Shown piece after piece: positions 2,541 to 61,492 of a stretch of DNA of 64,000 nucleotides (position 1 is the first letter of the stretch; each line of letters begins with the position of its first letter). Source of the stretch: a virus. The stretch spans positions 1 to 64,000 of the IMG/VR virus record IMGVR_UViG_3300007609_000005; one strand, given 5' to 3'. The notes below the pieces were generated by a model, which was not told the origin of the DNA, ran no database searches, and saw only the letters and a program-made list of their open reading frames with translations. A program made the position numbers and the translations under genes.

Positions 2541-2747
2541 AATGAGAGGTGGAAGAGATGGTATCGCTGGCAACAGAGGAACTTCATGACTGCCAAACCT
2601 AACGTGGGAGATTTAACCAATCGTTTGTACCACGGAAGCAGCAACTAAAACAGACCTAGTGTGTCGGTTTCACTATGATGGTCAGGTATAGGCAAAGATA
2701 AATGATACCTTAAAACAGAATCATGGGTAAGCTCACCACCTCTCATT
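2541..2747 (+). ncRNA. rnpB: minimal RNase P RNA
   Basis: P1 AATGAGAGGTGG/CCACCTCTCATT; P2 GGTATC/GATACC; P3 CTG-GCAA-CAG; GAGGAA-ACT[T]CATGA pairs with TCATGGGT after AAACAGAA (P4 with bulged U); AGATAAATGA segment; TAnnTTTG box at 2531. Confidence 0.85.
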
Positions 2748-2857
2748 TAACTAAATATAAAATTAGGAAATATAAGCAAACCTATCACTCAGACACAATT
2801 AAGAAAGAAATTCTTAAAGAAATAAGGAAAATGAAACTAAACAACCTCCTAAACTAA
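2723..2857 (+). CDS. possible 44-aa basic peptide or gene remnant with the C-terminal RxxKLxxLL tag
   Basis: MGKLTT...KEIRKMKLNNLLN; its ATG lies inside the RNase P P4 3' strand. Confidence 0.35.
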   Translation: MGKLTTSHLTKYKIRKYKQTYHSDTIKKEILKEIRKMKLNNLLN

Positions 2858-2878
2858 ATAAAATAGTATATTTGTATT

Positions 2879-3583
2879 ATGAAAATAGAAGAAATAGATC
2901 TATCATATATTTTTGATTATGTTTCATGGAGTAATGATTGCACTTGTGGTGATGATTATTGTCGGTGTCAAGAAATATTAGACCCAGAGATAACCAATTA
3001 TGAAAATTCTAAATTGGTCAATATCATCATATCAGATATATATAACCCAAATACACCACAAGGTCAAAGGAATAACAAATTATCAAAGATTCTGAACAAT
3101 CAAATAATAGTAGAGTATGCTATTCACCGAATTGTTAGTTTGGGAAATATTAAAAATGGGGATGATGATTGGGATTTTAATATTGAATGGGGGTATTATG
3201 GACAAGAAATGACATCAATTAATCTTTGTCCCAGTGTTGCTCGACCACTATCCGAAAAAATTGACAAAATATTATCACTGAAAACCACTAAAGAAATAAT
3301 AGATTATTCTATGGAACTCGAATATGGAAGTTTATCCAAAGATTCAATGAGATGCAAAGATTATAAGGTCATCAAAATATCACATAGTGAATTAGACAAT
3401 AAAAGTATCAACGAAAACCACCTCAATAAAATCGAAAGAGGACTTTATTCTGATTATCCAAAAAATCTACCAAGGGGTATTGTGAAAAAGAATTCACGTG
3501 GATATGTTATCGTAGATGGCTACCATAGAATATTCGATGTCCCTAGTAACAAAGAGTTTATGGTTTATTCAATGAAATTTTAA
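2879..3583 (+). CDS. hypothetical protein with C-terminal ParB/Srx-like motif
   Basis: YVIVDGYHR motif; Cys-rich N-terminus. Confidence 0.6.
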   Translation: MKIEEIDLSYIFDYVSWSNDCTCGDDYCRCQEILDPEITNYENSKLVNIIISDIYNPNTPQGQRNNKLSKILNNQIIVEYAIHRIVSLGNIKNGDDDWDFNIEWGYYGQEMTSINLCPSVARPLSEKIDKILSLKTTKEIIDYSMELEYGSLSKDSMRCKDYKVIKISHSELDNKSINENHLNKIERGLYSDYPKNLPRGIVKKNSRGYVIVDGYHRIFDVPSNKEFMVYSMKF

Positions 3584-3963
3584 TGGATATTATCTACATC
3601 ATATTTTTCATCTATATGGTAACTGAACTGTCATCGGTTTTCATATTAAACACAACATGGTACGAAAAATTTAAATTCATGGCACTGTGTAAAGAATTCC
3701 TAGATGAAAATTTGGATCAGGTATTCACATATAAACTCAATTTTCTTTTCGTTGAATCTAATGGCATATTTGGAACACATTATCAAAATGAACTGAGTAT
3801 TCACCTCAAAGGACATGAACCACTCTATATTACTATAGTTGTAGAAGATGGACAAGTAAATAATAAAAAAAAGATATTGGATTCCATAAAAGAACATTTC
3901 AACAAATCAAAAATAATTAAAGAGAATAGAAATATCACATTAAAAAACATATTAAATGATTGA
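3583..3963 (+). CDS. hypothetical membrane-anchored protein (C-tag)
   Basis: Hydrophobic N-terminus; ends RNITLKNILND. Confidence 0.65.
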   Translation: MDIIYIIFFIYMVTELSSVFILNTTWYEKFKFMALCKEFLDENLDQVFTYKLNFLFVESNGIFGTHYQNELSIHLKGHEPLYITIVVEDGQVNNKKKILDSIKEHFNKSKIIKENRNITLKNILND

Positions 3964-4477: not shown

Positions 4478-4516
4478 ATCTCATATATAAAATAAAATTT
4501 GTAACTTTGTGGTATT

Positions 4517-5038: not shown

Positions 5039-5049
5039 ATCACAAGAAA

Positions 5050-5373
5050 ATGACAAATAAATTAAGTAAGACACTATATATCTTCATAGATAAAAAAAGA
5101 GAAACGGTTGATAGGTTTGAAACCGACCAACCACTGAACATAAATGAGAATGGCTATATCTATATCGATATGGAAAGGATTCTTATTATCAATAAAGAAA
5201 GACCAAAAATATTTATATTCAAAAATATAAATACCATTGTATATGAATATGATGTTAGTGACATTCTTCAGCCGGGAGATATCGAAAAAATGAATCCCGA
5301 TATAACCAAAGAAGTAGATGACCTCATACGAGCAGATAAATTGGCTTCCATTCTACATGAAGAGATAGGTTGA
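5050..5373 (+). CDS. hypothetical protein (C-tag)
   Basis: Ends IRADKLASILHEEIG. Confidence 0.65.
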   Translation: MTNKLSKTLYIFIDKKRETVDRFETDQPLNINENGYIYIDMERILIINKERPKIFIFKNINTIVYEYDVSDILQPGDIEKMNPDITKEVDDLIRADKLASILHEEIG

Positions 5374-5401
5374 TTTAAAATATTTTTTGTAACTTTATAC
5401 T

Positions 5402-5665: not shown

Positions 5666-5666
5666 T

Positions 5667-6014
5667 ATGTTCAAAAAACCGAAAATAGAGGTTTATGGAT
5701 TTGAATATAATTGTGTTACAGACATTATCGATCCTCTATGTAGGAAAGATATATCCACATGCCGCCAAGCAATCCAAAGAAGACTCACCACACACAATGC
5801 ATATGCATTGATACTCAAAAGCAGAGTTATTGTTTGGGTAAAAACAAAATATATTCAACAACTATTCAACTCACCAGAAACGTTATACACCTACAATGAC
5901 CATTTTAATATGGATTCTGATGAAGAACACAAATTAATATGGAGTGCCATATGTAAAGGTCTTAGAAAAGAACACAGGTCAAATATAATATCTAAACTAT
6001 TGAACAATGAATAA
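5667..6014 (+). CDS. hypothetical protein (C-tag)
   Basis: Ends RSNIISKLLNNE. Confidence 0.6.
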   Translation: MFKKPKIEVYGFEYNCVTDIIDPLCRKDISTCRQAIQRRLTTHNAYALILKSRVIVWVKTKYIQQLFNSPETLYTYNDHFNMDSDEEHKLIWSAICKGLRKEHRSNIISKLLNNE

Positions 6015-6615
6015 TACCAAAGAACCACTACACTTTATAAAATACTTTATTATAGAGAATAAAGGCAGATTTATTATTGGAATCATCCTATCAATAATAT
6101 TCTGTGGTCTACTAAAATCAGAATTTAAAACACACCCACACGAACTCATCTATCAATATGAACACAATGATAAAAAAATGGTTCATTATTACGATGTGGT
6201 ATGGGAAACATACGAAACAGTAAAATACCCTAGCAAAACAATGGGTTGGGTGGATGAAGATAATAACACATTTCATTATTTCACACTAACCAAACCACAA
6301 TTTATATTCAGTATTATTGGGGTTTTTCTTCTCATATTTTGGGCAATGTCCTTATTCTTAGAAGACTGGGATATCAGAAAATGTCGTATTGATGCAGGTA
6401 TTAAACATGTTAAGACATTTGAAGAAGATGGTACTATCTATTACCGTTACAAAGGGAAATTATTACACACAACCAGTTACATTATGAACCCATATGAGGT
6501 GAGGGATTTAATAGGTAATTTCTATGATTCTTCACCAAATATGTACCCGGATTTCGAAATGCCTAAACGAAAATTGAGAAACCACCGACTTGGTGAGATA
6601 TTAGATGAAAAATGA
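6007..6615 (+). CDS. hypothetical membrane protein (C-tag)
   Basis: Two TM-like stretches; ends RNHRLGEILDEK. Confidence 0.65.
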   Translation: MNNTKEPLHFIKYFIIENKGRFIIGIILSIIFCGLLKSEFKTHPHELIYQYEHNDKKMVHYYDVVWETYETVKYPSKTMGWVDEDNNTFHYFTLTKPQFIFSIIGVFLLIFWAMSLFLEDWDIRKCRIDAGIKHVKTFEEDGTIYYRYKGKLLHTTSYIMNPYEVRDLIGNFYDSSPNMYPDFEMPKRKLRNHRLGEILDEK

Positions 6616-6627
6616 CATATGATGTCT

Positions 6628-6636: not shown

Positions 6637-6640
6637 AACT

Positions 6641-10275: not shown

Positions 10276-10731
10276 TTAAGTAAATAAGTCTTTAATTAAA
10301 TTAAGTGCTTCGATATTTTCTCTGATTCTCATCCTCTTCTTAACATCAAAGTTTTCACCCTTTTCCTTTAAATCTTTTTCAAATGATTGTATAGCACTGT
10401 TACAATCATCCTCAATATTACCATTATACATGTCGTTAAATAATGCTGACATATCACCATTATAGTTACGTTTTGCTTCATCGAAAAGTCTATCATGATT
10501 ATCATCATTTTCGAAAAGGCTTCTATTATCAATGAAAAAAGACACTATACGCTTATACTTACTGTGATTCTCATCTGAAATATTTTCCCAAGCACCTTTG
10601 AAATCTCCTTTAAGTATCTTTTTAGCAGCACCCCAAAGTTTTGACATATCAACAACACCTCTAAATAATGCTGATTTAGTTCCTTCATTTGTTATGTTTT
10701 GAAAGTTTTCAAATGATTTTAAATGTTCCAT
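10276..10731 (-). CDS. hypothetical protein (N-tag)
   Basis: Starts MEHLKSFENFQNITNE. Confidence 0.7.
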   Translation of the reverse strand: MEHLKSFENFQNITNEGTKSALFRGVVDMSKLWGAAKKILKGDFKGAWENISDENHSKYKRIVSFFIDNRSLFENDDNHDRLFDEAKRNYNGDMSALFNDMYNGNIEDDCNSAIQSFEKDLKEKGENFDVKKRMRIRENIEALNLIKDLFT

Positions 10732-12734: not shown

Positions 12735-13289
12735 ATGAGTATAAAGAAATTTACAAGTATGATAAATGAAATCCGTAAAAACGAGTACGGTTGTTCAATG
12801 GTATATTTTGATTTACCTTTTATTGATATGATACATGAATACATTGACGAAAAAGATATATACGAAGACCCAAATGATCCATCATATGGACTCGAAGATG
12901 AACCACACGTTACACTTCTTTTCGGATTACACGACAATGTTGATGATGAAGACGTATTCGACCTTTCAACACCCAAAGAAATAACACCAATAACATTAAA
13001 AAACATTGGGTGCTTTGAATCCCAAAATGGATATAATGTTCTTAAATTCGAAGCAGAAGCAGATTGGTTGGGGGAATGTAATGAGAAACTTACCGAACTG
13101 CCACACACATCAAATTTCCAGGATTACAAACCACATTGCACCATCTCATATATGATAAATGGAAAGTGTGATAAATATATCGATATCCTAAAGGGAGTTG
13201 AAATAAAAGTAGAACCCAAGGAATTGGTGTATTCAAAACCATCAGGTCAAAAAATCAAACGATCAATCAAGGATATCACCAAGGACTGA
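12735..13289 (+). CDS. 2H phosphoesterase, Acb1/T4 57B-like (N-tag)
   Basis: Two HxT motifs: PHVTLLFG and YKPHCTISY. Confidence 0.8.
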   Translation: MSIKKFTSMINEIRKNEYGCSMVYFDLPFIDMIHEYIDEKDIYEDPNDPSYGLEDEPHVTLLFGLHDNVDDEDVFDLSTPKEITPITLKNIGCFESQNGYNVLKFEAEADWLGECNEKLTELPHTSNFQDYKPHCTISYMINGKCDKYIDILKGVEIKVEPKELVYSKPSGQKIKRSIKDITKD

Positions 13290-13649
13290 TTTCCTCCTTA
13301 TTTTTTTCAGTGTAGGGATATGACCACCATACGTTTTGAATATAAAATCTTTAATATCTTCAATTTCAAGACTGAAATCCTCAAATTCCTGCTCAGTGGC
13401 ACGTGCCATAAGTGATGTCAAGTATGTCATGTATCTAATCTTAACATCTAACTCTTGTATTTCATGTTTGTAATCCGAATATTCATCAAAGAACTCAGAA
13501 ACCCGATCATGGGTGGTATTGGTTCGTTTAATTATCTCATAGGTATTTTTAATCGAATATACCATCGAAACCGAAAATATAATAATGACAACCGCAATTA
13601 CAGTAATAAATATGATATCAATCATCTCCATTTCCCAAAACTTTATCAA
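13263..13649 (-). CDS. hypothetical membrane-anchored protein (C-tag)
   Basis: N-terminal TM segment; ends RKSVLGDILD. Confidence 0.6.
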   Translation of the reverse strand: MIKFWEMEMIDIIFITVIAVVIIIFSVSMVYSIKNTYEIIKRTNTTHDRVSEFFDEYSDYKHEIQELDVKIRYMTYLTSLMARATEQEFEDFSLEIEDIKDFIFKTYGGHIPTLKKIRRKSVLGDILD

Positions 13650-14061
13650 TTGTTGTATTTCTCGTCTCCATCACCCCATCATATTCATCGAACATCTCAT
13701 CAAATTTTTTATTCTGAATTTTTTCAAATCTGACATCTAATGCACATTTTATTTTGTTCATAAACTTTCTATTAGAAGAATTATTATCTATCACAATGCC
13801 TTTATCATTTCGTCTAACAATCACCATATCTATATTACCATGCACCATAAACACATTCACAGTAATTCTAGTAGTATAACTCGATCTCTGAACTAATTTA
13901 TATTTCCTATCATTTTGCTTTCCCGACAAAGAAATAGAAAATCCCCCATTCTTTATAATAGAATGCACTAGGTTGAGTAGCCACCTTTTTCTGGATTCAT
14001 CTAACATATTACAAATATAAGGAAAAATCGGATCACTTACCGATTTTTTCCAAAATCCCAT
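13618..14061 (-). CDS. hypothetical protein (C-tag)
   Basis: Ends RNTTIDKVLGNGDD. Confidence 0.6.
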   Translation of the reverse strand: MGFWKKSVSDPIFPYICNMLDESRKRWLLNLVHSIIKNGGFSISLSGKQNDRKYKLVQRSSYTTRITVNVFMVHGNIDMVIVRRNDKGIVIDNNSSNRKFMNKIKCALDVRFEKIQNKKFDEMFDEYDGVMETRNTTIDKVLGNGDD

Positions 14062-14370: not shown

Positions 14371-14796
14371 TTATTTTTCATTTTTTATCAATTTATCGAT
14401 TTTCACTCTTCTCACTTCTGCATTTGGTAAATGGTAAATTGGTACTATACGATACTCACGATTCGGATTATCACCATACCTATTATACTGAACCATCGCC
14501 TCAACTGCAGTGGTCTGACTCATATAGATTTTATTCTTCCAATTATTCCACCAATTACTCCACTCACCACCCCTTTCCAAAACTCGTTGCTGTATAACCC
14601 AACCATAAGGTTCATAATCACTTTGTATCGATTGTCGGTCTATACTCATAACATTCTCACAGACTATATCATCACCCATTACGGTATTGACATCAAGATA
14701 TCCTTTCCTACACGTAGGACACTCAACTCTTTTTGGACACTCATCTATGATTTCTTGAATCTCCTTTTTAAATATTCTTCTTAATAATTCTTTCAT
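14371..14796 (-). CDS. hypothetical protein (C-tag)
   Basis: CPTC motif; ends RRVKIDKLIK. Confidence 0.6.
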   Translation of the reverse strand: MKELLRRIFKKEIQEIIDECPKRVECPTCRKGYLDVNTVMGDDIVCENVMSIDRQSIQSDYEPYGWVIQQRVLERGGEWSNWWNNWKNKIYMSQTTAVEAMVQYNRYGDNPNREYRIVPIYHLPNAEVRRVKIDKLIKNEK

Positions 14797-15683: not shown

Positions 15684-16266
15684 TTCTTTCTTTTATTTTT
15701 TTGATTATTGCCTTACCCCTCTGTCGGATAGATTTATACTTTATCTTAAATGATGTACTTTCCATCCCACCGAACATTTCACTATTTGAATGTATTTCGG
15801 CAAGACCCGTTAATAACAAAGTCAAGGAGTATGGATTCTTACTGAACTCTTCCACACCATCTGCCTTCAACAGATGAATATCCATATCGTGTAAAATAAG
15901 TTGGGCTGCATTTGGATTATCGAATATCCTATTGAAGTATTCATAAGACACTTCTGCGTGATGGGCGAAGTGCCTTCTTCCATCATTATCTATTTCCAAA
16001 CAAAAAGGCTTACCAATATCGTGGTATGTGGTATATAGCCGTAGAGTTTCATCATTTGGTAATGATGATAAGAACAGTTCTTTATTCCCCATCAACCATT
16101 CCGGCAACTTCCATTCATATTTCAATGGAATACCATCACGTAAATGGTCAATAAGGTCGAACAAGTGATCTCTTACTGATTCACCGTGTTCAAGAACAGA
16201 CATTCCTTGAGTCTGCTCACATTCCTTCATTTTTTGAAGGATCTCTTCTTTTGTAATCTATTTCAT
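15658..16266 (-). CDS. HD-domain phosphohydrolase; probable true start ATG AAA TAG at 16266 (in-frame amber), otherwise 16230
   Basis: [28 protein letters not shown] motifs; upstream in-frame [11 protein letters not shown]. Confidence 0.8.
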
Positions 16267-16587
16267 ATCGGTTATTATTTTTTCTAATTTAACTTTACGG
16301 GTTTCTTTTTTCACATCGATAACCTCTTCCTCGATGATAGTTCTTCTCATTATGCGTCCATCCAACTTTACAACATATCCGTTCCCATACCACCTGAAGA
16401 ATTTATCCCATTTTTCACTGTAGTCATCTGATGGTCCAATAGTATTATTACCCAACAACTGTGTGGCAAACTTCTGAAATTCAATAAGGTCTTCAATGTT
16501 ATCACTCAAATACTCCTCTTTGGAGTGTCCTATGCCTTCATACCCATACCAACTGAACTTTGAAAAATATTCTATTCTTGTTTTCAT
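16258..16587 (-). CDS. hypothetical protein (C-tag)
   Basis: Ends [16 protein letters not shown], in frame with the downstream HD gene. Confidence 0.65.
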   Translation of the reverse strand: MKTRIEYFSKFSWYGYEGIGHSKEEYLSDNIEDLIEFQKFATQLLGNNTIGPSDDYSEKWDKFFRWYGNGYVVKLDGRIMRRTIIEEEVIDVKKETRKVKLEKIITDMK

Positions 16588-16600: not shown

Positions 16601-17005
16601 TTACTCAGTTAATATTTTATTCAATTTGTTTATCCGGTCATACTTTTTATAATCACATGTTGTATATTTTCCATCACCAGACACACTATCAATTACTTTC
16701 AAATATATTGGATCAGATATTTCTTGGTCTGCATCAACCGAATAACCGGTAAAATTTCCTTCTATCACTTGATACCCATAAATACCACCTTCAAAAAAAT
16801 CATAGGATTCTTTCAATTTTTTGGAATCTTTTACGGATTTCTTAACCAAAGTCAAAAGACCACATAATGTTTCAAAAAAGTATTCTTGATTCTCTAAACT
16901 ATCACCGTGTACTTTGGCATCTGTTTTATTAGAACTCATTGTCCAAAAAGTATCACACTTGTAATATCGCCTTCCATTTGTTTCTATAAAATATACTACT
17001 TTCAT
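16601..17005 (-). CDS. hypothetical protein (C-tag)
   Basis: Ends RINKLNKILTE. Confidence 0.65.
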   Translation of the reverse strand: MKVVYFIETNGRRYYKCDTFWTMSSNKTDAKVHGDSLENQEYFFETLCGLLTLVKKSVKDSKKLKESYDFFEGGIYGYQVIEGNFTGYSVDADQEISDPIYLKVIDSVSGDGKYTTCDYKKYDRINKLNKILTE

Positions 17006-18506: not shown

Positions 18507-18983
18507 ATGAAATATATTAAAAAATATAACGAATCCACAGACAATTCAGATGAAGAATCTCTACTGAAGAGATTTGACGAACCCGTTAAAAAACTATATT
18601 ACAAACTATGTGAAGTTGATGAACTTAAGGATATTTTAACAGGTCGTGGATTGGTAAATATTCTCAGAGTGGTACAACATGAGATGGATGAGATGGATGG
18701 AGAACTACCAAAGGTCTATGGGACATGGTACGAAGAAACGCAAAGGAATTATATTGACCCAAATGAAACCCCAAATGATTACCCATATAGCGAACTTTAC
18801 GAAGCATTTGGACCAACACATGCACGTATATTATGGACACTACATTATGAACAAGATAGCATAATATTAGATACCGAAGAATACCACGTTCGAGAAGTTA
18901 ATGAAGAAGAACGCGCAAAATGGATAGAAGATTGTAAAAAAACATTGGAAATGATAAATAACCCACACGAATTGATATTATGA
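18507..18983 (+). CDS. hypothetical protein (N-tag)
   Basis: Starts MKYIKKYNES. Confidence 0.7.
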   Translation: MKYIKKYNESTDNSDEESLLKRFDEPVKKLYYKLCEVDELKDILTGRGLVNILRVVQHEMDEMDGELPKVYGTWYEETQRNYIDPNETPNDYPYSELYEAFGPTHARILWTLHYEQDSIILDTEEYHVREVNEEERAKWIEDCKKTLEMINNPHELIL

Positions 18984-19932: not shown

Positions 19933-20400
19933 TTAGAATCCCTCCCAGAAGTCAGTACCCTCTTCATGGGGGATTATGTTAGAAGATTCATAATCCGAAT
20001 AACTCCCTTTGATGAATCTTTTGGTTTTCAAACTTATCGATTCAGCCTTATTAGCAGCATCTAAATTACCACCAAATTCAATAACTTCACCATCCTCATA
20101 AATAATATCTATCCTCCCATTTCGGAAAATGTCACGTGAGTTATCACCATCCTTCACGGATAATACCTCTTCCAATTTTCGATTTCGTACCATTGATTCA
20201 GAACCATATTCTTTCCAGAATTTATCTATATCAAGTATCTTACTAGGCAAACCAAGACGGGTCATTGCACCACCGAGACTCGAATATTTTTTAGCCTCTA
20301 ATGGAATGGTTGACCATTTATCTGATATTTTATCCTTATACCCACAATAATATGCCTCACCTCTCCATACTATGTACCAAAACTTTCTATTATTCTTCAT
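19933..20400 (-). CDS. hypothetical protein
   Basis: 155 aa; internal RNRKLEEVL. Confidence 0.6.
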   Translation of the reverse strand: MKNNRKFWYIVWRGEAYYCGYKDKISDKWSTIPLEAKKYSSLGGAMTRLGLPSKILDIDKFWKEYGSESMVRNRKLEEVLSVKDGDNSRDIFRNGRIDIIYEDGEVIEFGGNLDAANKAESISLKTKRFIKGSYSDYESSNIIPHEEGTDFWEGF

Positions 20401-20761
20401 TTAATAAATTTTCAATTTTTAATTTACGTTGATATTGATCATTAACATTCTTAAACATTTTTGAGTTAACCTCAACAAAATACCGATTAAGAAAAGTAGG
20501 ACTTACCAATTTTTCATCACCATACATAATATAATGTAGTTGATGTTCTATTCCAAACCATTCAACTATTATAGATGCCATCCCAAAACAATCACCTTCA
20601 AAAACGTCATAATCCTCATAATTCTTCCCATTATCCGGGTCTTGTAATGGAATTGTAAAACGTCCACTAATACCCAAATCAACACATTTGAACCATACAT
20701 ATTTATGTGGATCAAATCTATCGTCTTTATGCAACAATTTGAAAAATTCCTCACCCATCAT
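20390..20761 (-). CDS. hypothetical protein (C-tag)
   Basis: Ends RKLKIENLLNEE. Confidence 0.6.
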   Translation of the reverse strand: MMGEEFFKLLHKDDRFDPHKYVWFKCVDLGISGRFTIPLQDPDNGKNYEDYDVFEGDCFGMASIIVEWFGIEHQLHYIMYGDEKLVSPTFLNRYFVEVNSKMFKNVNDQYQRKLKIENLLNEE

Positions 20762-23423: not shown

Positions 23424-24023
23424 TTATGTTTCAATCTCGAATTCTTCTTCACTTGAACCATACTCATCATCCAATTCTATCTTCAATTTAACTATGAGGT
23501 CTTCATCAATATCAGATATTTTAACGGTTCTTGGACCCAATTGACCAACTATTTGATCAACATCATTATACTTCTTGAACTTAATGGAACATTCCTTAAT
23601 ATCATCATCAGAGAAATCGGACTCACCATCCTCCGGTCTTGCAGATTTCAAAGGTATCGCAACGTATAAATTATACCAACTCTCCGGGTCAGAAAATTTA
23701 AAAGTAACATTATCCATAGTAGATGAATAATTACTCAGTTCAGATGATTCAAGTCTAAGTCCCATATCGGTTAAAGATATACTCGAATTTTTCTTTTCCT
23801 TCTCCTTCCCTTTTTCAATTGCTTGGTTCAATGTTAGAATATTATCTCCTTCTTCTCCTTCTTCTTCACCTTCTCCTTCTTCTGATTTTGAATATGGTTC
23901 TTCTACTTGCTCCTCAAATAAGGAATCCACACGTTTCTTTATCTTCATAAGAGCATTCTTAATATACTCCTCCGGTGTGTCCTGGTGATTTTCGTTAAAT
24001 TGACTATATTTTAAAATGTTCAT
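23424..24023 (-). CDS. acidic hypothetical protein (N-tag)
   Basis: Starts MNILKYSQFNE after TAATATATA. Confidence 0.7.
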   Translation of the reverse strand: MNILKYSQFNENHQDTPEEYIKNALMKIKKRVDSLFEEQVEEPYSKSEEGEGEEEGEEGDNILTLNQAIEKGKEKEKKNSSISLTDMGLRLESSELSNYSSTMDNVTFKFSDPESWYNLYVAIPLKSARPEDGESDFSDDDIKECSIKFKKYNDVDQIVGQLGPRTVKISDIDEDLIVKLKIELDDEYGSSEEEFEIET

Positions 24024-24069
24024 AAACTATATATTAAATACATTCAATGGAAATTATTATATTTGTAAA

Positions 24070-24603
24070 ATGAGAAACCTTATATTACATTATATATCAA
24101 GTCTAATCTTTCTTTTCGGTAACCTATTTTGGATAATACCCAAATTGAATCCAGATGACATAATTACGTGGATATTAGCCGTTATAGTGTGGGTTCTTAC
24201 AACTCTTGTCACATCATTCTTAATGTTTTGCATAATATCATTTATCATTAGTGAAGAGTCCCTGCCGATAATATTCTCACCATTCATATATCTTTCTTTA
24301 AGATTTCCCAAAGTTAAACCACTCAATGGCAACACATTAAAAAATGTATATCTCTTCTACAGTGATAGAGAGTTGTGGGTATTTGAATTGAATCTATTCT
24401 ATATAATAGACATAAAATCACCCATTGAATATAATAAAGAGAGTAATATCCAAGAATTACTCAATGAAGAGTTAGAGGATTATATAAATAAACGTTTGGA
24501 TAAAATAGATCAAATGAAAAACGTTTCTGAATGGGATGGGTTTTTACTTGATAAGGACAGGCGTAACAACACAATTAAATCGATCATTGATAAAAAGAAG
24601 TGA
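24070..24603 (+). CDS. hypothetical membrane protein (C-tag)
   Basis: Start reassigned to the ATG after the TATATTTG box; TM segments; ends RNNTIKSII. Confidence 0.65.
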   Translation: MRNLILHYISSLIFLFGNLFWIIPKLNPDDIITWILAVIVWVLTTLVTSFLMFCIISFIISEESLPIIFSPFIYLSLRFPKVKPLNGNTLKNVYLFYSDRELWVFELNLFYIIDIKSPIEYNKESNIQELLNEELEDYINKRLDKIDQMKNVSEWDGFLLDKDRRNNTIKSIIDKKK

Positions 24604-47426: not shown

Positions 47427-47813
47427 TCATCTTTGGTAATTATTCTGTACTGCATATATGATTGACTTGAACCGGGTTTCAATTTCTTCATCTTGTGCCT
47501 TTTTTAATTCACCAAGATTTCTAACTATTCCTTTCAGAGCCTTTATATGTTCAAATTTTAAAAACATCAAATAAGGGAAGTATCTTATAGGCTTTTTGTC
47601 CTTATTCCATCGACCATACAATGCCGCCTTGAAATTTTTCTTAGTAATTTCCACTATATCATATTCATAATTAATGACATACATTTTAAGACCATATCCA
47701 AGCACAATATCATAATCATCTAACTTTAAAAGGCTTAGATCACTTATATGATAAAAATTCCTATCTTTAACATGTATCTCATATTCCTCATTGAATTTTT
47801 TAAGATGTTTCAT
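47423..47813 (-). CDS. hypothetical protein (N-tag)
   Basis: Starts MKHLKKFNEE; ORF track gives 47427-47813. Confidence 0.65.
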
Positions 47814-48541: not shown

Positions 48542-49360
48542 ATGTCATTTATAAAGAAGTATAACGAACTGAATAGTGATAAATATAAATTGGCAGGAGA
48601 AGAATTAACTAAACTAGGTCACTCTGGCCGCGGGAAAAAACTTATTGAATGGGGAGAACATAAACGATATTCGGAAATATCGGAAAAGGCAGAATATGCT
48701 AGAAATATTTATTCCAAATACGGAAAATTGCGAATTTATGTGGAGGGATTTCATGACACCAGGGATAAACAACTTTGGGGAGATTTAATTCCGGATGAGT
48801 TTGATTATTTTATACATTTTTCGAATGATGTTACAGTAGAAGAGTTTGGAACTGTTGATGATGGAAATGATTCGGAGATACTACACTTCAATCTTTATAT
48901 TATTCCAACCCAAGAAATGATAGACCGACTTTTCAACGCTGATCACAAAACAACTGACAAACAACTTATAACTTTTTACAAAGACGAACTTAGCATTGAT
49001 GATTTTTCATCTTACTTCTTTTTATGCACTTTTACAATCGAATTTAAGAAAGATCTCGAAAATCAAAAATTGAATTTATCAGATATAAGTATTTGCCCGG
49101 TTGAAATGGACTTTGGTAAAATAACATTAAAAACAAAAAGGGATGCAGCCAAATTCAGAGAGCTATTGTATTCAATATTCAATAAAGACATAGACTACCC
49201 AACATATCCGAATAATACACTTTCAAAAAAACCAATGTATGATGAAATTCAAGAAACATTGGTAGAACTTGATGTACTTACGAATTACGGACTTGAAATT
49301 GAAGATATTGCAGAACAGATAAAAATATTTTCAACAAATAAATTGTATAAAGAGATATGA
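48542..49360 (+). CDS. hypothetical protein (N-tag), tandem paralog 1
   Basis: MSFIKKYNEL; similar to the next ORF (LT..GH..RG.KL, DYP, KP.Y.E..E.L.E.DVL..YGL..EDIAE). Confidence 0.75.
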   Translation: MSFIKKYNELNSDKYKLAGEELTKLGHSGRGKKLIEWGEHKRYSEISEKAEYARNIYSKYGKLRIYVEGFHDTRDKQLWGDLIPDEFDYFIHFSNDVTVEEFGTVDDGNDSEILHFNLYIIPTQEMIDRLFNADHKTTDKQLITFYKDELSIDDFSSYFFLCTFTIEFKKDLENQKLNLSDISICPVEMDFGKITLKTKRDAAKFRELLYSIFNKDIDYPTYPNNTLSKKPMYDEIQETLVELDVLTNYGLEIEDIAEQIKIFSTNKLYKEI

Positions 49361-53190: not shown

Positions 53191-53328
53191 ATAAATACCA
53201 CATTTGAACTTAAATTGGAATAAATTTCAAAAAATTTCAAAAAAAGTTCACACAATATTTGTTTGTATCAAAAAGAAATGCATATCTTTGTAATCGTAAA
53301 TCAATTATTAATCATAAACAACAGTAAA

Positions 53329-54498
53329 ATGTCAGAAGAAAAAGAAAAAAATGTGCAACGGATTAAAGACCGAGAGGCAAAATCCGAAAGTGGAATGATC
53401 TCTAACCAAGAGTTCTCTCCACGAATGAAAAACCTCACAAAGAAAGAGGAAGCCTACTTCCGTTCAATGTGGCCAAAGTATGGTGTTCTCTTCATCACAG
53501 CAAAACCAGGTGTTGCTAAATCAGCAATTGCCCGTTCCATTGCTGAGAAGATGGGATTCCGTTACATGGACCTTCGCCTTTCAATGGTTGATGAGACTGA
53601 TGTCGGTCTTTTCCCAAATGTGAGTGAAGTTGATGGTTCTAAAGTTCTTGATCACGTTGTTCCACGTTGGGCAGTTGAATCCAACAAGCAACCAACCATC
53701 ATCCACTTCGAGGAGTTGAACCGTGCAACCCAACAGGTTCGTAATGCAGCACTTCAAATCCTTCTTGAAAGAGAAATCGGTACGAATTTCAAATTCAATG
53801 ACAATGTATTGATGATGGCTTCAGGTAACCTTGGTGACGAAGATGGTACTGATGTCGAGGAATTTGACTCAGCATTGAACGGTCGTCTTATCCACGTTCA
53901 ACACACATTGAGTGTAGATGAGTGGATGGAAAACTTCGCAAAGGAGAATGTTCACCCAACAATCGTTGGATATCTGAACTCTCACCCGGAGAAACTTTAT
54001 GTTGATCCAAACCAGGATGACAAATTCAATGCATACGCATCACCACGTTCATGGACAATGATGAGTGAGTTTATTGTGAAGAACTACGGCATCAATGCAA
54101 CTGCGAAGGATTTCCTTCCTGCATTGAAACAACAAGCCGGTTCTTATATCGGTGCAACTGCGGTGAAGTACATCCAATACTGTGAGGATATGTTGCGTAT
54201 CAGCATCATGGATGTATTGAACAACTACAAGAAAGTTAAAAACGATCTTGAGCAGTACAACCGTGACAAGAAGTCTGAACTAATTCAATCTCTTAAAGAG
54301 ATGGAGGTAACAGAACTTACTGATAAGCAGATGAAAAACTGCGTAGCTTTCTTGAAGACTGTGGATGATGATGAATTGACTGCATACCTTCTTCACCTAG
54401 TAGATACCAATTACGAAGTGACAAGTGATAAACTGAAGAAATTTCTTTTGAATTTCAGAGATACACTTCAGACAATCCACAGTATTAACAACAAATAA
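53329..54498 (+). CDS. MoxR-like AAA+ ATPase
   Basis: KPGVAKS Walker A, FEELNRA..QVRNAALQ, ASGN, ALNGR, SPRSW; likely start MSEEK after the TATCTTTG box. Confidence 0.88.
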   Translation: MSEEKEKNVQRIKDREAKSESGMISNQEFSPRMKNLTKKEEAYFRSMWPKYGVLFITAKPGVAKSAIARSIAEKMGFRYMDLRLSMVDETDVGLFPNVSEVDGSKVLDHVVPRWAVESNKQPTIIHFEELNRATQQVRNAALQILLEREIGTNFKFNDNVLMMASGNLGDEDGTDVEEFDSALNGRLIHVQHTLSVDEWMENFAKENVHPTIVGYLNSHPEKLYVDPNQDDKFNAYASPRSWTMMSEFIVKNYGINATAKDFLPALKQQAGSYIGATAVKYIQYCEDMLRISIMDVLNNYKKVKNDLEQYNRDKKSELIQSLKEMEVTELTDKQMKNCVAFLKTVDDDELTAYLLHLVDTNYEVTSDKLKKFLLNFRDTLQTIHSINNK

Positions 54499-56147: not shown

Positions 56148-56504
56148 ATGCCAGAATACACCAATATAAGTAAAGAAGTAAGGGGAACATTGATGGATAC
56201 AACATCAACCGAATTAATCGCAAATTGGCTAAAGCCGTATTTCCCAGAAATAACATATGAAAATATAGATATATCAAAAACACCATTTAATAATTTAACG
56301 CTAAATTATAAAGATATCCCAATACTGTTTGAGAGGGATTTTGTTTTAACCATAAACCCTGTAAAAGATAAACATGGTAATTACCAAACTACCGAATTCA
56401 AACGATGGATAATTGAGGATCTTCCGGCATTAACAATTAAACACAAAAGGAGAAAACTTCTTGATACAATAATGAATGAGAAAAGGAGCACAAACATTCA
56501 ATGA
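56148..56504 (+). CDS. hypothetical protein (C-tag)
   Basis: RRKLLDTIM near the C-terminus. Confidence 0.55.
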   Translation: MPEYTNISKEVRGTLMDTTSTELIANWLKPYFPEITYENIDISKTPFNNLTLNYKDIPILFERDFVLTINPVKDKHGNYQTTEFKRWIIEDLPALTIKHKRRKLLDTIMNEKRSTNIQ

Positions 56505-56872
56505 AGATCAAACTCAAAAAAGCAAAAATACAACTCCGCCACAGGATAAAGATATTTAAACATTTTTACCTCAAAAGATATTTTATCATAAATGGTATTA
56601 TTCTAATTATTGCGATACACAACTATGTAATGCATGGTGACTTAACAGGATTCATTTGTTTTGGTTCAACATTGGCAATATTCCTATTACTTTTTTTATC
56701 AGTTGATATTCAGGCAAGATCAGATAATAATTTCAATCACCCAATCGATAAACTTCTCCAAAGAGAAATAGGTAATGACCAAGAATATAAATCAATACTC
56801 GAAGAAGAGAAATTTACAAAGAACAAAAAAGAACGTGAAAAGAAACTTAAGAAAATATTAAATGATAATTGA
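56501..56872 (+). CDS. hypothetical membrane protein (C-tag)
   Basis: Two TM segments; ends REKKLKKILNDN. Confidence 0.6.
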   Translation: MKIKLKKAKIQLRHRIKIFKHFYLKRYFIINGIILIIAIHNYVMHGDLTGFICFGSTLAIFLLLFLSVDIQARSDNNFNHPIDKLLQREIGNDQEYKSILEEEKFTKNKKEREKKLKKILNDN

Positions 56873-56918
56873 CATATGGAACACTTGCCATTCCATTTAA
56901 AATCTGTATATTTGTATT

Positions 56919-57641
56919 ATGGATATTACAAAACCATTTTATATATTCGGGTCAGAAAACTCACAAGATTATGATGTGTTGGTCTCCGTTGATGAAATAC
57001 CACAGGAAATTGATAAAGCACATAAAATCTGTAAGTTTTGGAATCAAAGATTATCTCTTATTCTAACAGACAAACCATTAAACTGTAACATCGGTGTTTT
57101 TAATGATGGTGATCTGGTTTCTTGTTTTAAAGGAACTGTTGACGAATTATCAAATGTGTTGTATTATACATATGATAACCACACACAATATTTCCCCAAC
57201 CCCATTAAAAATCCAGTTGAACGGGACTTGGATGAAAAATTGGTAAGAGTTGCAAGATTCATCATTTCCTTTTATTCACGTACAGAACTCAGAAGTGATA
57301 TTAAGAAGGCACTACGTGGAAACATATCGGATAGAACCAATGTCATTAAAAAGATAGATTTTACCAAAATGACCGAATTCCCCGGTAAAAAAGAAAAGAA
57401 AGAAGACATATACAAAGTACTTGCTTTCCAATTTGGACAAGTATTCTCTATGGTGGATGATAAAGAATCTGAATCTTATACCAAAACCGAGATAATGAAA
57501 AACTATCCCGATCTGGGAAATATGTTAGTTAGGGGAGAAACCAAACAAACCGACCTGGAAACTCTCAATGAGTACCGTGATCGGTTTGTCGATTATGTGG
57601 AGAAAAACTTGGATAGTAAGTTAGTAGAGACTCTTATTTAA
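56919..57641 (+). CDS. pol-beta-family nucleotidyltransferase-like protein
   Basis: YIFGS...QDYDVLV (GS...DxD). Confidence 0.6.
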   Translation: MDITKPFYIFGSENSQDYDVLVSVDEIPQEIDKAHKICKFWNQRLSLILTDKPLNCNIGVFNDGDLVSCFKGTVDELSNVLYYTYDNHTQYFPNPIKNPVERDLDEKLVRVARFIISFYSRTELRSDIKKALRGNISDRTNVIKKIDFTKMTEFPGKKEKKEDIYKVLAFQFGQVFSMVDDKESESYTKTEIMKNYPDLGNMLVRGETKQTDLETLNEYRDRFVDYVEKNLDSKLVETLI

Positions 57642-57798: not shown

Positions 57799-57878
57799 AA
57801 TTCAGACTTTTATTTACTTGTATATATATGTATTTCTCCTCTCCCTAAACCATTTATTAAATTTATCATATAAAACAC

Positions 57879-58118
57879 ATGTGCAATTCACGAATATATG
57901 ACGAAAAGATATTTAAGGATAAAATTGAGAAACTTAGAACGGAGTATTACTATTGCCCTCACTGCTTTGCGAATAATTTAACATCCATAACAAGTGGTGG
58001 TGCTATATTAATACATGATTACCTATGCATCAATTGCAATGAAACATTCGATATTATTTTAGCATTGACCAAGACGGAAATTAGGGAATTGAAACTCAAT
58101 AAACTACTTTCTAATTGA
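57879..58118 (+). CDS. zinc-ribbon protein (C-tag)
   Basis: CPHC...CINC; ends RELKLNKLL. Confidence 0.65.
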   Translation: MCNSRIYDEKIFKDKIEKLRTEYYYCPHCFANNLTSITSGGAILIHDYLCINCNETFDIILALTKTEIRELKLNKLLSN

Positions 58119-58472: not shown

Positions 58473-58511
58473 ATGATGTAAATATACAACAAAAAATTTA
58501 ATATATGTAAT

Positions 58512-58862
58512 ATGAAGTTAGATTTTCAATTACTTAGACACAACTATATCAAACGACTTGTTATATTTTCTCTATTTCTATATAAGAACCAAAGAAAAAA
58601 TGAAGTGACATATTCCAACTTAGTCCGTTCGTTCATTGACAAAAGACTTAATATAAACATAGAATTGGATATTGATGTTGGTCCAAAAATGCCAAAGGTC
58701 GATGTGAGAAATGTTCTATTAGATGACATACTTGGTGATTCAGATATGGATGTGGGAGTAATGAATCTTGTCATTGTTAATTTCAAAACAGGACACAAAG
58801 AGGAAACACTACAAATAAATTTGAACGATGAAGAAAAATACGAACTATTTTTAGAATCTTAG
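58512..58862 (+). CDS. hypothetical protein
   Basis: 116 aa; internal RNVLLDDIL. Confidence 0.55.
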   Translation: MKLDFQLLRHNYIKRLVIFSLFLYKNQRKNEVTYSNLVRSFIDKRLNINIELDIDVGPKMPKVDVRNVLLDDILGDSDMDVGVMNLVIVNFKTGHKEETLQINLNDEEKYELFLES

Positions 58863-59500
58863 TTCGAAACTGGAACATATTTATCAACTTTCCTTTTGTG
58901 CAGCCGGTTGCTGCGTAATTTAAAATATTTCCACTTACGTCTCATGTTCATTGCAACATAATATGCATCAGGTTTCAATAGATCATTGAATATTTTCATA
59001 TTATGAAATTGTCTTTTATAAACCATCTCAATGAATCCATCATCTACATTATGACCACCTTTTTCCGAACGTTCTTTATTTTGTTTTTTCGCAGTTTCGA
59101 GATCAACAATAATATGTACAAACATTAGTTTATATCCATATTTCTTAGATTCCTCCTTCACCCTCAAAAGTACTCTATCATTGGTTGCTGTTGTATCATA
59201 TACAAAGTTTTGTCCAGACTCCATAAAGGCAAATAATCTTTTAATATTCAATTCAGACGAACCCGAAACATATTCCTCACTCGAACCACCTAATAAAGTA
59301 CGTGAAACATCATCTGTTGAAAAAATTTTAACATTTTTCATCTTTCTCTTTATCTCATTCATAGCAAATGTTGATTTCCCAGCACCGGGTGCTCCGGTCA
59401 ATATTATTCCCAATTTAGAATTTTCTCTGAATTCTGGAATTGGGTCATTCTTGGAATACTCTTCATTTATATGTTCTTTATACTTTAAAATTTCCATCAC
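58859..59500 (-). CDS. P-loop kinase (zeta-toxin/AAA_33-like) (N-tag)
   Basis: GAPGAGKST, YDTT, R...GGH.V; starts MMEILKYKEHINEE. Confidence 0.75.
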   Translation of the reverse strand: MMEILKYKEHINEEYSKNDPIPEFRENSKLGIILTGAPGAGKSTFAMNEIKRKMKNVKIFSTDDVSRTLLGGSSEEYVSGSSELNIKRLFAFMESGQNFVYDTTATNDRVLLRVKEESKKYGYKLMFVHIIVDLETAKKQNKERSEKGGHNVDDGFIEMVYKRQFHNMKIFNDLLKPDAYYVAMNMRRKWKYFKLRSNRLHKRKVDKYVPVSN

Positions 59501-60504
59501 CCATCATGCCTTATTGTTATATCCACACTATTATATGCTGAATTAGATATCCATATATCATATGGTACTTGGTAAGAAAAATCATTTGAAAATGTATAAC
59601 CATCCTTTATCTTGGTGAAATCATTTGAAAACATGTTACCAACATAGAATCCATCATTTGGTAGGTTACCATAAACACTTGGGTGAGCATATACGAAATA
59701 AGAACCAGTCCCAAAACTCATATGAGTCTCAAAATCAAACCCGTTCTGTAATGAACTTACCGTAAGACCCTTTATACGTGTATCTGTTATATATGCTCTT
59801 GTAGTAGTAACTGATGATGGAAGACTTGGTGTATATCCCCCAATAGGTGTGAGGTCAATCGGACCATAATAAACCTTGTGTTTATAAATAGCAGAGGATG
59901 TTGCACTAAAAGTCATACCATCACCAGTAACAACACTCATTGTAAATATATTCAATTCTGTAACTGCTGGAGTTGATGAGAATGTAGGCGAAATACCACT
60001 TTGAGTACCTACTTCCGGGTAACTACCGGTCGGTACCACTGTACCTAACAATCCGGTAGGACCATTGAATGATATGGAAAATAATGGAGAGTACCCGGGT
60101 GTTATCTGATATGATAAAGATTGTATAGGTGCTAATTGACCAAATTGATACTCATCAATAACAGCATCAAACCCATCTATCAATGGTTCTCTGTATGATT
60201 CTAACATTTGACCAAACAGTTGATATGGTGTCAAATCGGATAATGTTATTCCCCTTGGAACACCACCAACCTCATACGTTGTCCTTCTCAATGAAGAAAA
60301 AGTTACACCACTTGCAGTTGCAACAGACTGTGATCCTATTTCAAGAACACGGTTATGTAATGTCCATGCCATATCACGAACATCTTTTGCATCAATTAAA
60401 TTACCGGTGTTATCTTGTAACCTTTGTAATAACTGAGTAAAATCGTCCTCATATTCCGAGTACCAATTCGATCCTGTTCCAGTTGATGGTGTTCCTAATG
60501 ACAT
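59497..60504 (-). CDS. putative virion structural protein
   Basis: Gly/Ser/Thr-rich beta-type composition; TAATATATA upstream; L.DNT..LI.A.DVRD motif. Confidence 0.55.
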   Translation of the reverse strand: MSLGTPSTGTGSNWYSEYEDDFTQLLQRLQDNTGNLIDAKDVRDMAWTLHNRVLEIGSQSVATASGVTFSSLRRTTYEVGGVPRGITLSDLTPYQLFGQMLESYREPLIDGFDAVIDEYQFGQLAPIQSLSYQITPGYSPLFSISFNGPTGLLGTVVPTGSYPEVGTQSGISPTFSSTPAVTELNIFTMSVVTGDGMTFSATSSAIYKHKVYYGPIDLTPIGGYTPSLPSSVTTTRAYITDTRIKGLTVSSLQNGFDFETHMSFGTGSYFVYAHPSVYGNLPNDGFYVGNMFSNDFTKIKDGYTFSNDFSYQVPYDIWISNSAYNSVDITIRHDG

Positions 60505-60547
60505 TCAATGAAATTCTTTTATCTATATATTATTTTGAAAAAGCCTA

Positions 60548-61492
60548 TTGTTAATCCAAAAGTTATATGTATCTTTGTACAACAAATCAAAAACACACAC
60601 AAAATTGAGTTATTACAGAAGAACACCAAATTTCCAACCTTACAACAAACAAAATCTTCTTGATCGAATCAACAAGATTGAAATTATCCGTGAGGAAAAC
60701 CAAGTCATTACTAAATATGACGGAAGAGTAACTGCAATTTCAGATGTTTCCAATAAGTATGAGGTCTTTGATATCAAGAAGTATATCCAAGAAAAACTTG
60801 ACCTTATTGAGAAAAACTTTGAAATCAAAGAGTTTTATTTTAGTGTAACAAAAGGAATCCAACAATTGAAACTGATCAGTGATACTATCGAGATCAATGG
60901 TATGGAATTCCACAAAACGTTTTTCATCATCAACTCATCTGATCGTTCAAGAAGACTTCAATTCAATTCAGGACTTTACTCAAAAGGAAGTAACTTCTAC
61001 ATGGTGAGTACAACACAAAACCTCGGACTCTCCAAAAAGCATTACCGAGGAATCACAGATGCAGCCGAGGAAGCAACAAAAGACATCAATGTTGAAACAT
61101 TTGACGAGCAGATTGAAGCAATTCAGAAATTAGTGGGACACAAGGTTGCATTCTCAAAACTACGTAAGGTCATGGTCGGTGATGGTAGTGTAAAAACAAA
61201 TCACCTTAAATTTGATAAACTCAAAGAACATCTTCTGTGGGCACTCCGAGAGGATAAATCTGTAACAATGACCGGTGAAAATTATTCACTCCTCAGAAAA
61301 CGGTCACAATATGCAGGAGATGTCGACCCAAATAAAGATTTCTATATGGATGCATTCATGGTATTCCAAGTTTATATGAAATTGTATTCACACTTGGACT
61401 CACACATTGTTAAAACAGAAACAGAAAGAATTCTTGGAATTACACAGTGGGCTGTGAGAAATGAATTATTGGGTGATCTTTTAGCAGTATAA
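60548..61492 (+). CDS. hypothetical protein, DUF932-like (C-tag)
   Basis: VSNKYEVFD...IINSSDRS...KKHY; probable start TTG 60605; ends RNELLGDLL. Confidence 0.55.
   Translation: MLIQKLYVSLYNKSKTHTKLSYYRRTPNFQPYNKQNLLDRINKIEIIREENQVITKYDGRVTAISDVSNKYEVFDIKKYIQEKLDLIEKNFEIKEFYFSVTKGIQQLKLISDTIEINGMEFHKTFFIINSSDRSRRLQFNSGLYSKGSNFYMVSTTQNLGLSKKHYRGITDAAEEATKDINVETFDEQIEAIQKLVGHKVAFSKLRKVMVGDGSVKTNHLKFDKLKEHLLWALREDKSVTMTGENYSLLRKRSQYAGDVDPNKDFYMDAFMVFQVYMKLYSHLDSHIVKTETERILGITQWAVRNELLGDLLAV

Follow-up and report, generated by a model that had tools for sequence, protein, structure and literature searches.

A near-C-terminal R-x-x-K-[LI]-x-x-[IL]-[LI] peptide, probably a docking helix, shared by unrelated proteins in a single huge-phage clade

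Several short portable peptides are known that place unlike proteins under a common handler. The degrons and tethers of Clp unfoldases, namely the ssrA tag, the MuA C-terminus and the XB tail of SspB, are short terminal peptides on unrelated proteins. The capsid-targeting sequence (CTS) of phage T4 and the cargo peptides of encapsulins are portable terminal peptides that serve one handler in an HK97-type virus or compartment. The PIP box, Q-x-x-[LIM]-x-x-[FY]-[FY] or QL[SD]LF, combines a C-terminal position and h-x-x-h-h spacing with many clients on one hub, and BC-box, SOCS-box and F-box modules, viral ones included, put one short helix or module on many variable proteins, each bringing a different target. 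The mitochondrial processing peptidase (MPP) recognizes an Arg at position -2 of its presequences with a pair of acidic residues, and such presequences are able to fold as amphipathic helices (PMC3772902, accessible text). Phage SPO1 encodes Gp53, which is adaptor-like (PMC6873191, accessible text). Here we analyze a peptide of this general kind in the virus record IMGVR_UViG_3300007609_000005, of which a stretch of 64,000 nucleotides (the window) was studied. In its short form the peptide, below called the C-tag or simply the tag, reads R-x-x-K-[LI]-x-x-[IL]-[LI] and lies at most 12 residues from the protein end; about one protein in six of this phage has it. It resembles the known portable peptides in its way of working, yet fails a defining feature of each family tested. 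A portable docking helix under protein-level selection, attached mostly to the C-termini of many fast-evolving non-virion accessory proteins in one phage clade, is in our view the rather probable explanation.

The window covers the first 64 kb of one contig (132,459 bp, 33% G+C), whose completeness is estimated at 52% (CheckV). The contig DNA is partly 66-70% identical to the 'uncultured phage' genomes LR745206 and LR756502 (635-642 kb). The largest genomes of Al-Shayeb et al. 2020 were assigned there to the Mahaphage clade with predicted Bacteroidetes hosts (PMC7162821, accessible main text). The clade of tag carriers consists of huge phages for which Bacteroidetes hosts are predicted. The window encodes glutaminyl- and asparaginyl/aspartyl-type tRNA synthetases, both type II topoisomerase subunits, a protein with a type IX secretion sorting domain, an RNA ligase, an exonuclease, an endolysin, a homing endonuclease and a MoxR-like ATPase, while Hsp70, a ClpC without N-domain and S-adenosylmethionine synthetase are encoded elsewhere on the contig. 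A published description of a shared C-terminal tag in phages did not turn up in the literature searched, supplements excluded; in particular, the accessible main text of Al-Shayeb et al. (PMC7162821) contains none of the terms 'C-terminal', 'chaperone' and 'Clp'.

The tag is strongly enriched at protein ends. A greedy set of open reading frames (ORFs; 205 genes and 41,648 residues on the contig) was curated by adding five dropped ORFs and removing eight likely shadow ORFs on our own judgement, which gave 202 genes. They were searched with a loose regular expression, R..[KRTLIVNHQ][LIVM]..[LIVM][LIVM], with no more than 12 residues between its end and the stop. In the curated window set, 24 of 93 genes carry the loose tag at the C-terminus, with seven further matches at internal positions, compared with a mean of 0.39 and a maximum of three C-terminal matches in 300 shuffles of the whole proteins. 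The initial annotation, which had listed 24 C-terminal peptides and three internal copies, was accurate here, as all of them are present in the named ORFs, and the C-terminal frequency is well above that expected from composition both genome-wide and in tag-bearing relatives. For the greedy set of the whole contig, the loose pattern gives 34 C-terminal and 12 internal matches, and the shuffles a mean of 0.96 (maximum 5) and 10.8, respectively; since the internal count is close to the shuffle level, the excess is confined to the C-terminal class. With the strict pattern the contig has 28 C-terminal versus two internal matches (shuffle mean 0.13). As controls, the reversed pattern yields one C-terminal match, and a window placed at the N-terminus none. 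In the curated contig set 40 of the 202 genes are tagged.

The carriers are small (44-314 residues, median 123), and the motif ends 0-10 residues before the stop, most commonly two. The logo of the 40 carriers reads [K]-[K/Q]-[E/L]-x-R-[N>K,D,E]-x-K-[L/I]-x-x-[I/L]-L-[N/D/S/T], and a tail of 0-10 residues, polar for the most part, comes after it. The tag measures about 14 residues, with Arg1, Lys4, Leu5, Ile8 and Leu9 on one face. Position 8 is I or L in 39 of 40 cases and position 9 is L or I in 39 of 40; there are only three aliphatics and no aromatics. Position 10 is N, D, S or T, positions 6 and 7 are mixed, and acidic residues are common at the x positions, none of which is a conserved acidic position. 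When position 1 was left free, R occupied it in 31 of 36 C-terminal matches and K in none (internal background, R in 2 of 45), with a similar outcome in the relatives (R in 31 of 34, K in 0 of 34). The dominance of R at an unconstrained position indicates that the Arg is real and not an artefact of the pattern.

Conservation is at the level of the peptide. The Arg codons AGA, AGG, CGA, CGG and CGT are used 17, 8, 5, 2 and 8 times in the tags, with 18.3, 7.5, 5.5, 2.1 and 5.8 expected (p=0.88); the use of five Leu codons and of the Ile codons is likewise genome-like (p from 0.10 to 0.99), and only the Lys codon AAA is slightly enriched (p=0.02). A DNA-level signal in the gene ends, such as a promoter, a ribosome site or a recombination box, was considered and rejected, with Arg and Leu each encoded by five codons in genome proportions. 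A single paralogous family of carriers was rejected as well: in pairwise blastp of 39 carrier bodies with the tag removed, the best E-value was 0.06. Transmembrane (TM)-like segments are present in seven of the 40 tagged proteins. The earlier statements that the DNA differs between copies, that the proteins are unrelated (at the sequence level) and that both soluble and membrane proteins are labelled are all borne out.

The carriers themselves are almost devoid of annotation. None of 39 matches Pfam at E<0.001 (nine have weak one-off matches at 0.0016-0.0097), and one has a PHROG match. Ten further tagged proteins from the window and from loci L006, L012 and L013 gave only three annotation matches, all below the cut-off, and none of ten large tagged proteins of the related genome G001 has a Pfam match. 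A homologue search with the carrier of 180 residues retrieved two proteins, and its model found nothing in the PDB at E<=0.001 (Foldseek).

The tag itself is retained as the bodies diverge, being kept in 11 of 14 orthologue pairs at 24-46% overall identity. In the family of the 180-residue carrier (A2), the tag Arg is among five invariant alignment columns. In family A5, encoded just upstream of clpC, the tag Arg and Leu9 are two of three invariant columns, the third being I6. The representative of A5 (L003:14742-15131, contig 118742-119131) is an all-beta protein of 129 residues; this family is conserved in 12 contigs, and has a tag-like E-R-R-D-E-I-I-D-E-I-L-N helix followed by a tail of 7-20 residues. 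The predicted folds of the two families differ. The AlphaFold2 (AF2) model of A2 is alpha/beta with a mean per-residue confidence (pLDDT) of 90.5 over 180 residues, and the tag forms helix 169-179 at about 91; the A5 model has a body at about 90 and the tag in a terminal helix, 98-125, at pLDDT 53-62. In another tagged family the homologues from two tagless genomes, G003 and G004, stop about 20 residues earlier. Given the variable tails and the conserved internal copies, the tag is best regarded as a docking helix that is usually but not necessarily terminal. The docking helix proposed in the initial annotation is thus supported by peptide-level conservation, unrelated bodies, a helix in both models and a near-invariant Arg; the same tails of 0-10 residues and internal copies weaken its other suggestion, a strict degron requiring a free end.

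The tag is a clade trait with a sharp edge. Among topoisomerase flanks from 85 viral contigs, all 36 loci with at least 56% protein identity have two to eleven tagged genes, and all 49 loci at 55% or less have none or one. At the scale of whole genomes, the tag is found in 35 of 205 genes of our contig, 40 of 499 in G001 (385 kb), 121 of 815 in G002 (508 kb) and 7 of 199 in G006 (shuffle mean 1.0, maximum 4); it labels 8-17% of genes in the main tag-bearing genomes and 3.5% in G006, an outlier. In each of two tagless relatives, G003 and G004, two of 349 genes match the loose pattern and none the strict one, as expected from shuffles. LR756502 and LR745206 were sampled over about 42 kb each, with 9 tagged genes of 80 and 15 of 74, respectively. 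Only six of the 203 tagged proteins from four genomes have any homologue in two tagless genomes, and two of these six are truncated paralogues of the terminase ATPase half. One such C-tagged paralogue of the N-terminal half of the large terminase, with a counterpart in G002, is present in the window (28926-29840, minus strand, 304 residues). In a second survey, of 80 ClpC flanks, the close group had one or more loose tags at 11 of its 15 loci, and the remaining 65 loci had them in three cases (none strict); it says little, since these flanks are glycosyltransferase clusters, which are tag-poor even in our own contig. No alternative shared C-terminal ending was apparent by eye in four tagless topoisomerase-flank loci. 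In a more distant relative, four adjacent genes (L008:5182-8499) end in ...SLF, ...TLF, ...VLW and ...GLW after F-x-N-L-[FL], which may be another shared ending or a small paralogous family.

The same phages use a second label, M-K-H-L-K-K-[FY]-N-E, at the N-termini of about 27 proteins contig-wide (in the window, for instance, 47427-47813 and 10276-10731 on the minus strand, 48542-49360 and 18507-18983 on the plus strand); the same N-termini occur in LR756502, LR745206 and G001. A box of the TAATATATA type lies 5-15 nt before the start codon in 20 of the 27 N-tagged genes. Searched as [AT]ATATATA or TAATATA[ACT] at most 40 nt upstream, this TATATA box precedes 20 of 27 N-tagged and 1 of 40 C-tagged genes, along with 19 of the 135 remaining genes (Fisher test for C-tagged versus N-tagged genes, 2.8e-10). 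In G001 it precedes 1 of 40 tagged versus 147 of 459 other genes (p=1.5e-5), and in other relatives 2 of 45 versus 38 of 227. These observations confirm that the C-tag and the N-tag mark different gene classes. The first 140 kb of G001 encode a virion structural protein, the major head protein, the head protease, the portal, the large terminase and a tail fibre. Of the 156 genes in this region a single one is tagged, versus 39 of 343 elsewhere, and because of this rarity we take the C-tag to mark non-virion genes. In our own contig the carriers are interleaved with replication and translation genes. The Bacteroidetes-type -7 box TANNTTTG is found upstream of 29 of the 202 genes and is unrelated to the tag. 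Boxes of this kind (TAnnTTTG) stand 4 nt before several start codons (window 2857-2879 and 56872-56919, contig 71227-71241), which suggests leaderless or near-leaderless mRNAs.

Most likely, the tag is a docking helix for one phage-encoded partner, for which the gene content provides candidates. In the proposed mechanism, one common partner would grip the carriers by the tag helix and handle them as a class. Its surface might combine an acidic rim for the Arg and Lys with a hydrophobic groove for the L/I/L residues, and the outcome could be processing, folding help, recruitment or removal of the carriers. If phage-encoded, such a partner would be expected among the G001 proteins shared by all tag-bearing and none of the tagless genomes compared. 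A tblastn profile of the 499 G001 proteins leaves a set of 38 with counterparts in both G002 and G006 and in neither G003 nor G004. In order of conservation, this set is headed by Hsp70, a von Willebrand factor A (vWA) protein, an M28 peptidase, a ligase-like protein, a protein of 70 residues and an M16B peptidase. About ten genes restricted to tag-bearing genomes form a cluster (G001:C1:154000-172000) that encodes a ligase-like protein, a NUDIX protein, a protein of 1716 residues and several unknowns.

Among these candidates, the M16B peptidase would fit the chemistry of the tag best, judging by the analogy with MPP presequences: both are basic, helix-prone peptides with one fixed Arg followed by hydrophobics, on many unrelated proteins. 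As a processing signal, the tag would be read by the M16B enzyme of the clade, which would cut off the tail or degrade the smallest carriers and so switch carriers on or off. Apart from our own fragment, all five tag-bearing genomes searched have the gene (57-83% identical to that of G001), and the four tagless genomes have none; it retains the HxxEH zinc motif (H-L-M-E-H) and the downstream E-rich motif, and its nearest solved chains are a Bacillus processing protease and MPP-beta. Two M28 aminopeptidase-like genes have the same phyletic pattern, the M28 peptidase occurring in all five tag-bearing records other than our own and in 0/4 tagless ones, and the reading of Arg in helix-prone presequences by MPP (PMC3772902, accessible text) is a precedent. 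Unlike MPP presequences, however, the tag is C-terminal or internal, its R-x-x-K-L spacing does not match the R-2/R-3 rules, and there is no organelle. The M16B gene was not found on our 52% fragment, its distribution is common to 37 other genes, and cleavage is putative. Processing as the whole explanation appears unlikely.

Chaperone recruitment, in which the tag would bring Hsp70/DnaJ or a vWA-MoxR pair to marginally stable, fast-evolving small proteins, seems to us no better than a doubtful alternative. Hsp70 binds an extended Leu-rich core. The i, i+3/4, i+7/8 spacing and the fixed Arg of the tag suggest instead a helix read in a groove, and acidic residues are common at its x positions. 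On the other side, Hsp70 is the most conserved of the 38 proteins (75-78%) and is found in all six tag-bearing and none of four tagless records. On our contig the full-length Hsp70 (L002:4905-6782, contig 92399-93460; Pfam E 3e-247) has a DnaJ-like protein, with the J-domain at its N-terminus, encoded 1.6 kb downstream. The DUF2201 vWA protein has the same distribution, being present in 6/6 tag-bearing records (63-72% identity in five relatives) and having no close homologue in the four tagless genomes, where only a weak 31% match in G007 was found. A published proposal has vWA domains capturing substrate peptides ahead of remodelling by MoxR (PMC7159879, accessible text). Such a captured peptide would be expected to offer an acidic residue to the metal of the metal ion-dependent adhesion site (MIDAS), and the tag has no conserved acidic position. 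MoxR is present in five of six tag-bearing records; it was not found in tag-bearing G001, which is 95% complete. Of the MoxR/vWA hub suggested initially, the vWA partner stays a candidate, as it follows the tag distribution.

A Clp degron or tether is slightly less probable still. By this explanation, an N-domain-less (delta-N) ClpC with phage or host ClpP would bind the tag, either for the timed removal of early proteins or for use as an adaptor. Like the Clp degrons and tethers, the tag is a short terminal peptide on unrelated proteins in a phage that encodes a Clp unfoldase. The ClpC of the contig matches residues 153-802 of Staphylococcus aureus ClpC (E 1.7e-231) and thus lacks the N-domain; it retains the G-V-G-F ClpP loop and the Tyr/Arg/Asp of the M-domain tip. 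A conserved poly-Asp N-terminal tail takes the place of the N-domain (L003:15132-17246, contig 119132-121249), and the gene just upstream is the conserved tagged family A5. Work on the S. aureus enzyme showed that its delta-N form has no activity as long as contacts of the M-domain stay intact (PMC12583610, accessible text), so that the phage enzyme would need an activator. Delta-N ClpC occurs in 5/5 close relatives and ClpP in three of the five; ClpC ORFs of about 630-760 residues are found in about 55 of the 80 viral contigs returned. Delta-N ClpC is also encoded by the tagless G003, G004 and G007 (55-56% identity), and, to judge from these sequences, a role of ClpC as clade-specific reader is weakened. 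The N-domain, the usual dock of adaptors and of the SspB tether, is missing, and the four positions that separate ClpC of the tag clade from other viral delta-N ClpC fall without exception within the small D1 subdomain and not in the M-domain or the N-terminal tail. Unlike ssrA or MuA degrons, the tag ends at variable distance from the carboxyl end and has conserved internal copies, and seven of the 40 carriers are membrane proteins. A complex prediction for ClpC (17 rows) and the upstream tagged protein (12 rows) scored 0.00 with no controls and counts neither way.

A few of the matches to candidate readers contain stop codons. One in-frame TAA lies inside the ClpC match in each of three tagless genomes (G003:C1:111018-112982, G004:C1:46261-48243, G007:C1:109717-111678), and one in-frame TAG in the MoxR match G002:C1:354957-356147 and in the M16B match G006:C1:131384-132490. 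These may reflect match overhang, split genes or recoding.

Recognition by a sliding clamp in the manner of a PIP box is very unlikely, as is recognition by a different hub of the host (the beta clamp, RNA polymerase or the ribosome, for example). The near-C-terminal polar-x-x-[LI]-x-x-h-h arrangement does resemble Q-x-x-[LIM]-x-x-[FY][FY], and the 180-residue carrier has an orthologue from a contig just beyond the tag clade (L009:11830-12366, minus strand) that ends in the canonical PIP-box-like R-Q-I-K-L-N-L-F-F-D. The tag, however, has no aromatic pair, its fixed residue is Arg and not Gln, and the DnaN, PCNA and gp45 models (PF00712, PF00705, PF02916, PF09116) found no match in five phage records, the gp45 models having had no valid positive control. 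For host hubs in general, the sharp clade boundary fits a phage-encoded reader better.

Even less credit is given to a membrane-targeting amphipathic helix of the MinD/FtsA C-terminal type, acting with no protein reader. Its C-terminal position, basic and hydrophobic residues and L-x-x-[IL]-L spacing would suit such a role, whereas the strict preference for Arg over Lys at position 1, where the two are not interchangeable, is unexpected for lipid binding, the three aliphatics come with no aromatics, and seven of the 40 carriers already have a TM-like segment. Least probable of all is a capsid cargo label, of the type of the T4 CTS, an encapsulin cargo peptide or a scaffolding C-terminal helix: despite a short terminal peptide on unrelated proteins of a very large-headed phage, and basic residues at i and i+3 as in the P22 scaffolding protein, the genes of the carriers lie apart from the virion module, in the company of replication and translation genes, and lack the TATATA box that accompanies the N-tag, which likewise weakens the initial idea of a phage compartment or capsid as the destination. 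By analogy, the N-tag of the same phage is the better counterpart of the T4 and encapsulin peptides.

Several points weigh against a docking helix with a dedicated phage-encoded partner. The hub and its binding of the tag are hypothetical. The co-occurrence of readers and tag comes from comparing one clade with its relatives, equivalent to one or two independent contrasts, and the pattern is common to 38 genes; co-distribution within one clade therefore nominates candidates and proves nothing. Neither an M16B nor an M28 gene was found on our own contig, which is 52% complete. In family A2 the tag helix is modelled as confidently as the body (pLDDT 91), and for this reason it may be packed into the fold and not free. 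Gene calling relied on a crude, greedy choice of ORFs, and we devised the regular expression for the motif ourselves. Some topoisomerase-flank loci look near-duplicate (equal counts in L139/L140 and L145/L146), so the 36 loci are not 36 independent phages. The TATATA box may be a late promoter, by analogy with T4. Finally, the claim that the C-tag never occurs together with the N-tag holds on our contig (27 N-tagged, 40 C-tagged and no doubly tagged genes of 202, with 5.3 expected; hypergeometric P=0.0016) and fails in G001, where, with the same loose N-tag pattern, two genes carry both tags at chance level (2.9 expected, P=0.43).

Combining the two labels, one could imagine a proteome-wide addressing system, although we consider this speculative and unlikely in its full form. 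An N-terminal label would mark the TATATA-box genes, and a C-terminal helix would mark 8-17% of all genes, whose fast-evolving products would be adaptors or effectors docking onto a single proteostasis machine of the clade (M16B/M28, Hsp70, vWA-metallopeptidase, ClpC-ClpP). The machine might mature or clear the C-labelled proteins on schedule. Alternatively, each C-labelled protein might bring a different host target to it, as eukaryotic viral SOCS-box and F-box proteins do. Compared with BC-box, SOCS-box and F-box proteins, the tag has no sequence relation and the phage no ubiquitin system, and target binding by the tagged bodies is hypothetical.

The tagged genes of the window, the three internal copies and the two candidate readers encoded there are listed in Table 1. 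The internal copies differ in their conservation. The Arg of the copy in ORF 2879-3583 is lost in one orthologue, the ninth, which comes from a contig outside the tag-rich group, and no orthologue of ORF 19933-20400 was found.

Table 1. C-terminal tags, internal copies and candidate readers in the window (coordinates are window positions)
Feature	Position	Strand	ORF	Length (aa)	Remarks
RKMKLNNLL	2825-2851	+	2723-2857	44	1 residue before stop
RNITLKNIL	3928-3954	+	3583-3963	126	N-terminal TM-like segment
RADKLASIL	5329-5355	+	5050-5373	107	
RSNIISKLL	5976-6002	+	5667-6014	115	weaker variant
RNHRLGEIL	6577-6603	+	6007-6615	202	TM-like segment
RKSVLGDIL	13269-13295	-	13263-13649	128	TM-like segment
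RNTTIDKVL	13636-13662	-	13618-14061	147	
RRVKIDKLI	14386-14412	-	14371-14796	141	
RKVKLEKII	16273-16299	-	16258-16587	109	
RINKLNKIL	16610-16636	-	16601-17005	134	
RKLKIENLL	20402-20428	-	20390-20761	123	
RNNTIKSII	24562-24588	+	24016-24603	195	TM-like segment; initially listed as 24070, same frame, earlier start here
RDYKLETLL	26673-26699	-	26658-27011	117	
RNVTLRKIL	27575-27601	-	27563-28072	169	L005 and L006 orthologues tagged too
RVKKIGHLL	28935-28961	-	28926-29840	304	paralogue of large terminase N-terminal half
RDIKLTQLL	29843-29869	-	29837-30379	180	tag in 4/5 locus orthologues
RDHKLSSII	30712-30738	-	30709-31161	150	at very end
RDRKLKEIL	31167-31193	-	31161-31595	144	just downstream of topoisomerase II large subunit gene
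RNIKIYEIL	36343-36369	+	35893-36387	164	
REIKLKRLL	36711-36737	+	36384-36752	122	
RRKLLDTIM	56448-56474	+	56148-56504	118	weak variant; 9 residues before stop
REKKLKKIL	56834-56860	+	56501-56872	123	TM-like segment
RELKLNKLL	58083-58109	+	57879-58118	79	
RNELLGDLL	61457-61483	+	60548-61492	314	degraded version in L013 orthologue
RNNKLSKIL, internal	3068-3094	+	2879-3583	234	Arg kept in 8/9 orthologues
RNRKLEEVL, internal	20161-20187	-	19933-20400	155	
RNVLLDDIL, internal	58707-58733	+	58512-58862	116	LR745206 orthologue RDYLLEDIL
DUF2201 protein (putative metallopeptidase and vWA-like domain), candidate reader	41078-42652	+			co-distribution with tag
MoxR-like AAA+ ATPase, weaker candidate reader	53263-54498	+			not found in tag-bearing G001

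New in this analysis are the clade boundary of the tag, the split of its gene class from that of the N-tag, the conserved internal copies, the weakened case for ClpC and the list of co-distributed proteostasis genes. Nearly all carriers belong to no family and have no known function, and such proteins make up most of the genomes of huge phages; the identification of one partner would therefore provide a first functional handle on about 200 carriers in four genomes. The sharp clade boundary and the 38 co-distributed genes, headed by chaperone and peptidase genes, reduce the search to a short testable list. If the tag is indeed a docking or processing signal, it would be a ready-made portable peptide for phage systems of Bacteroidota.

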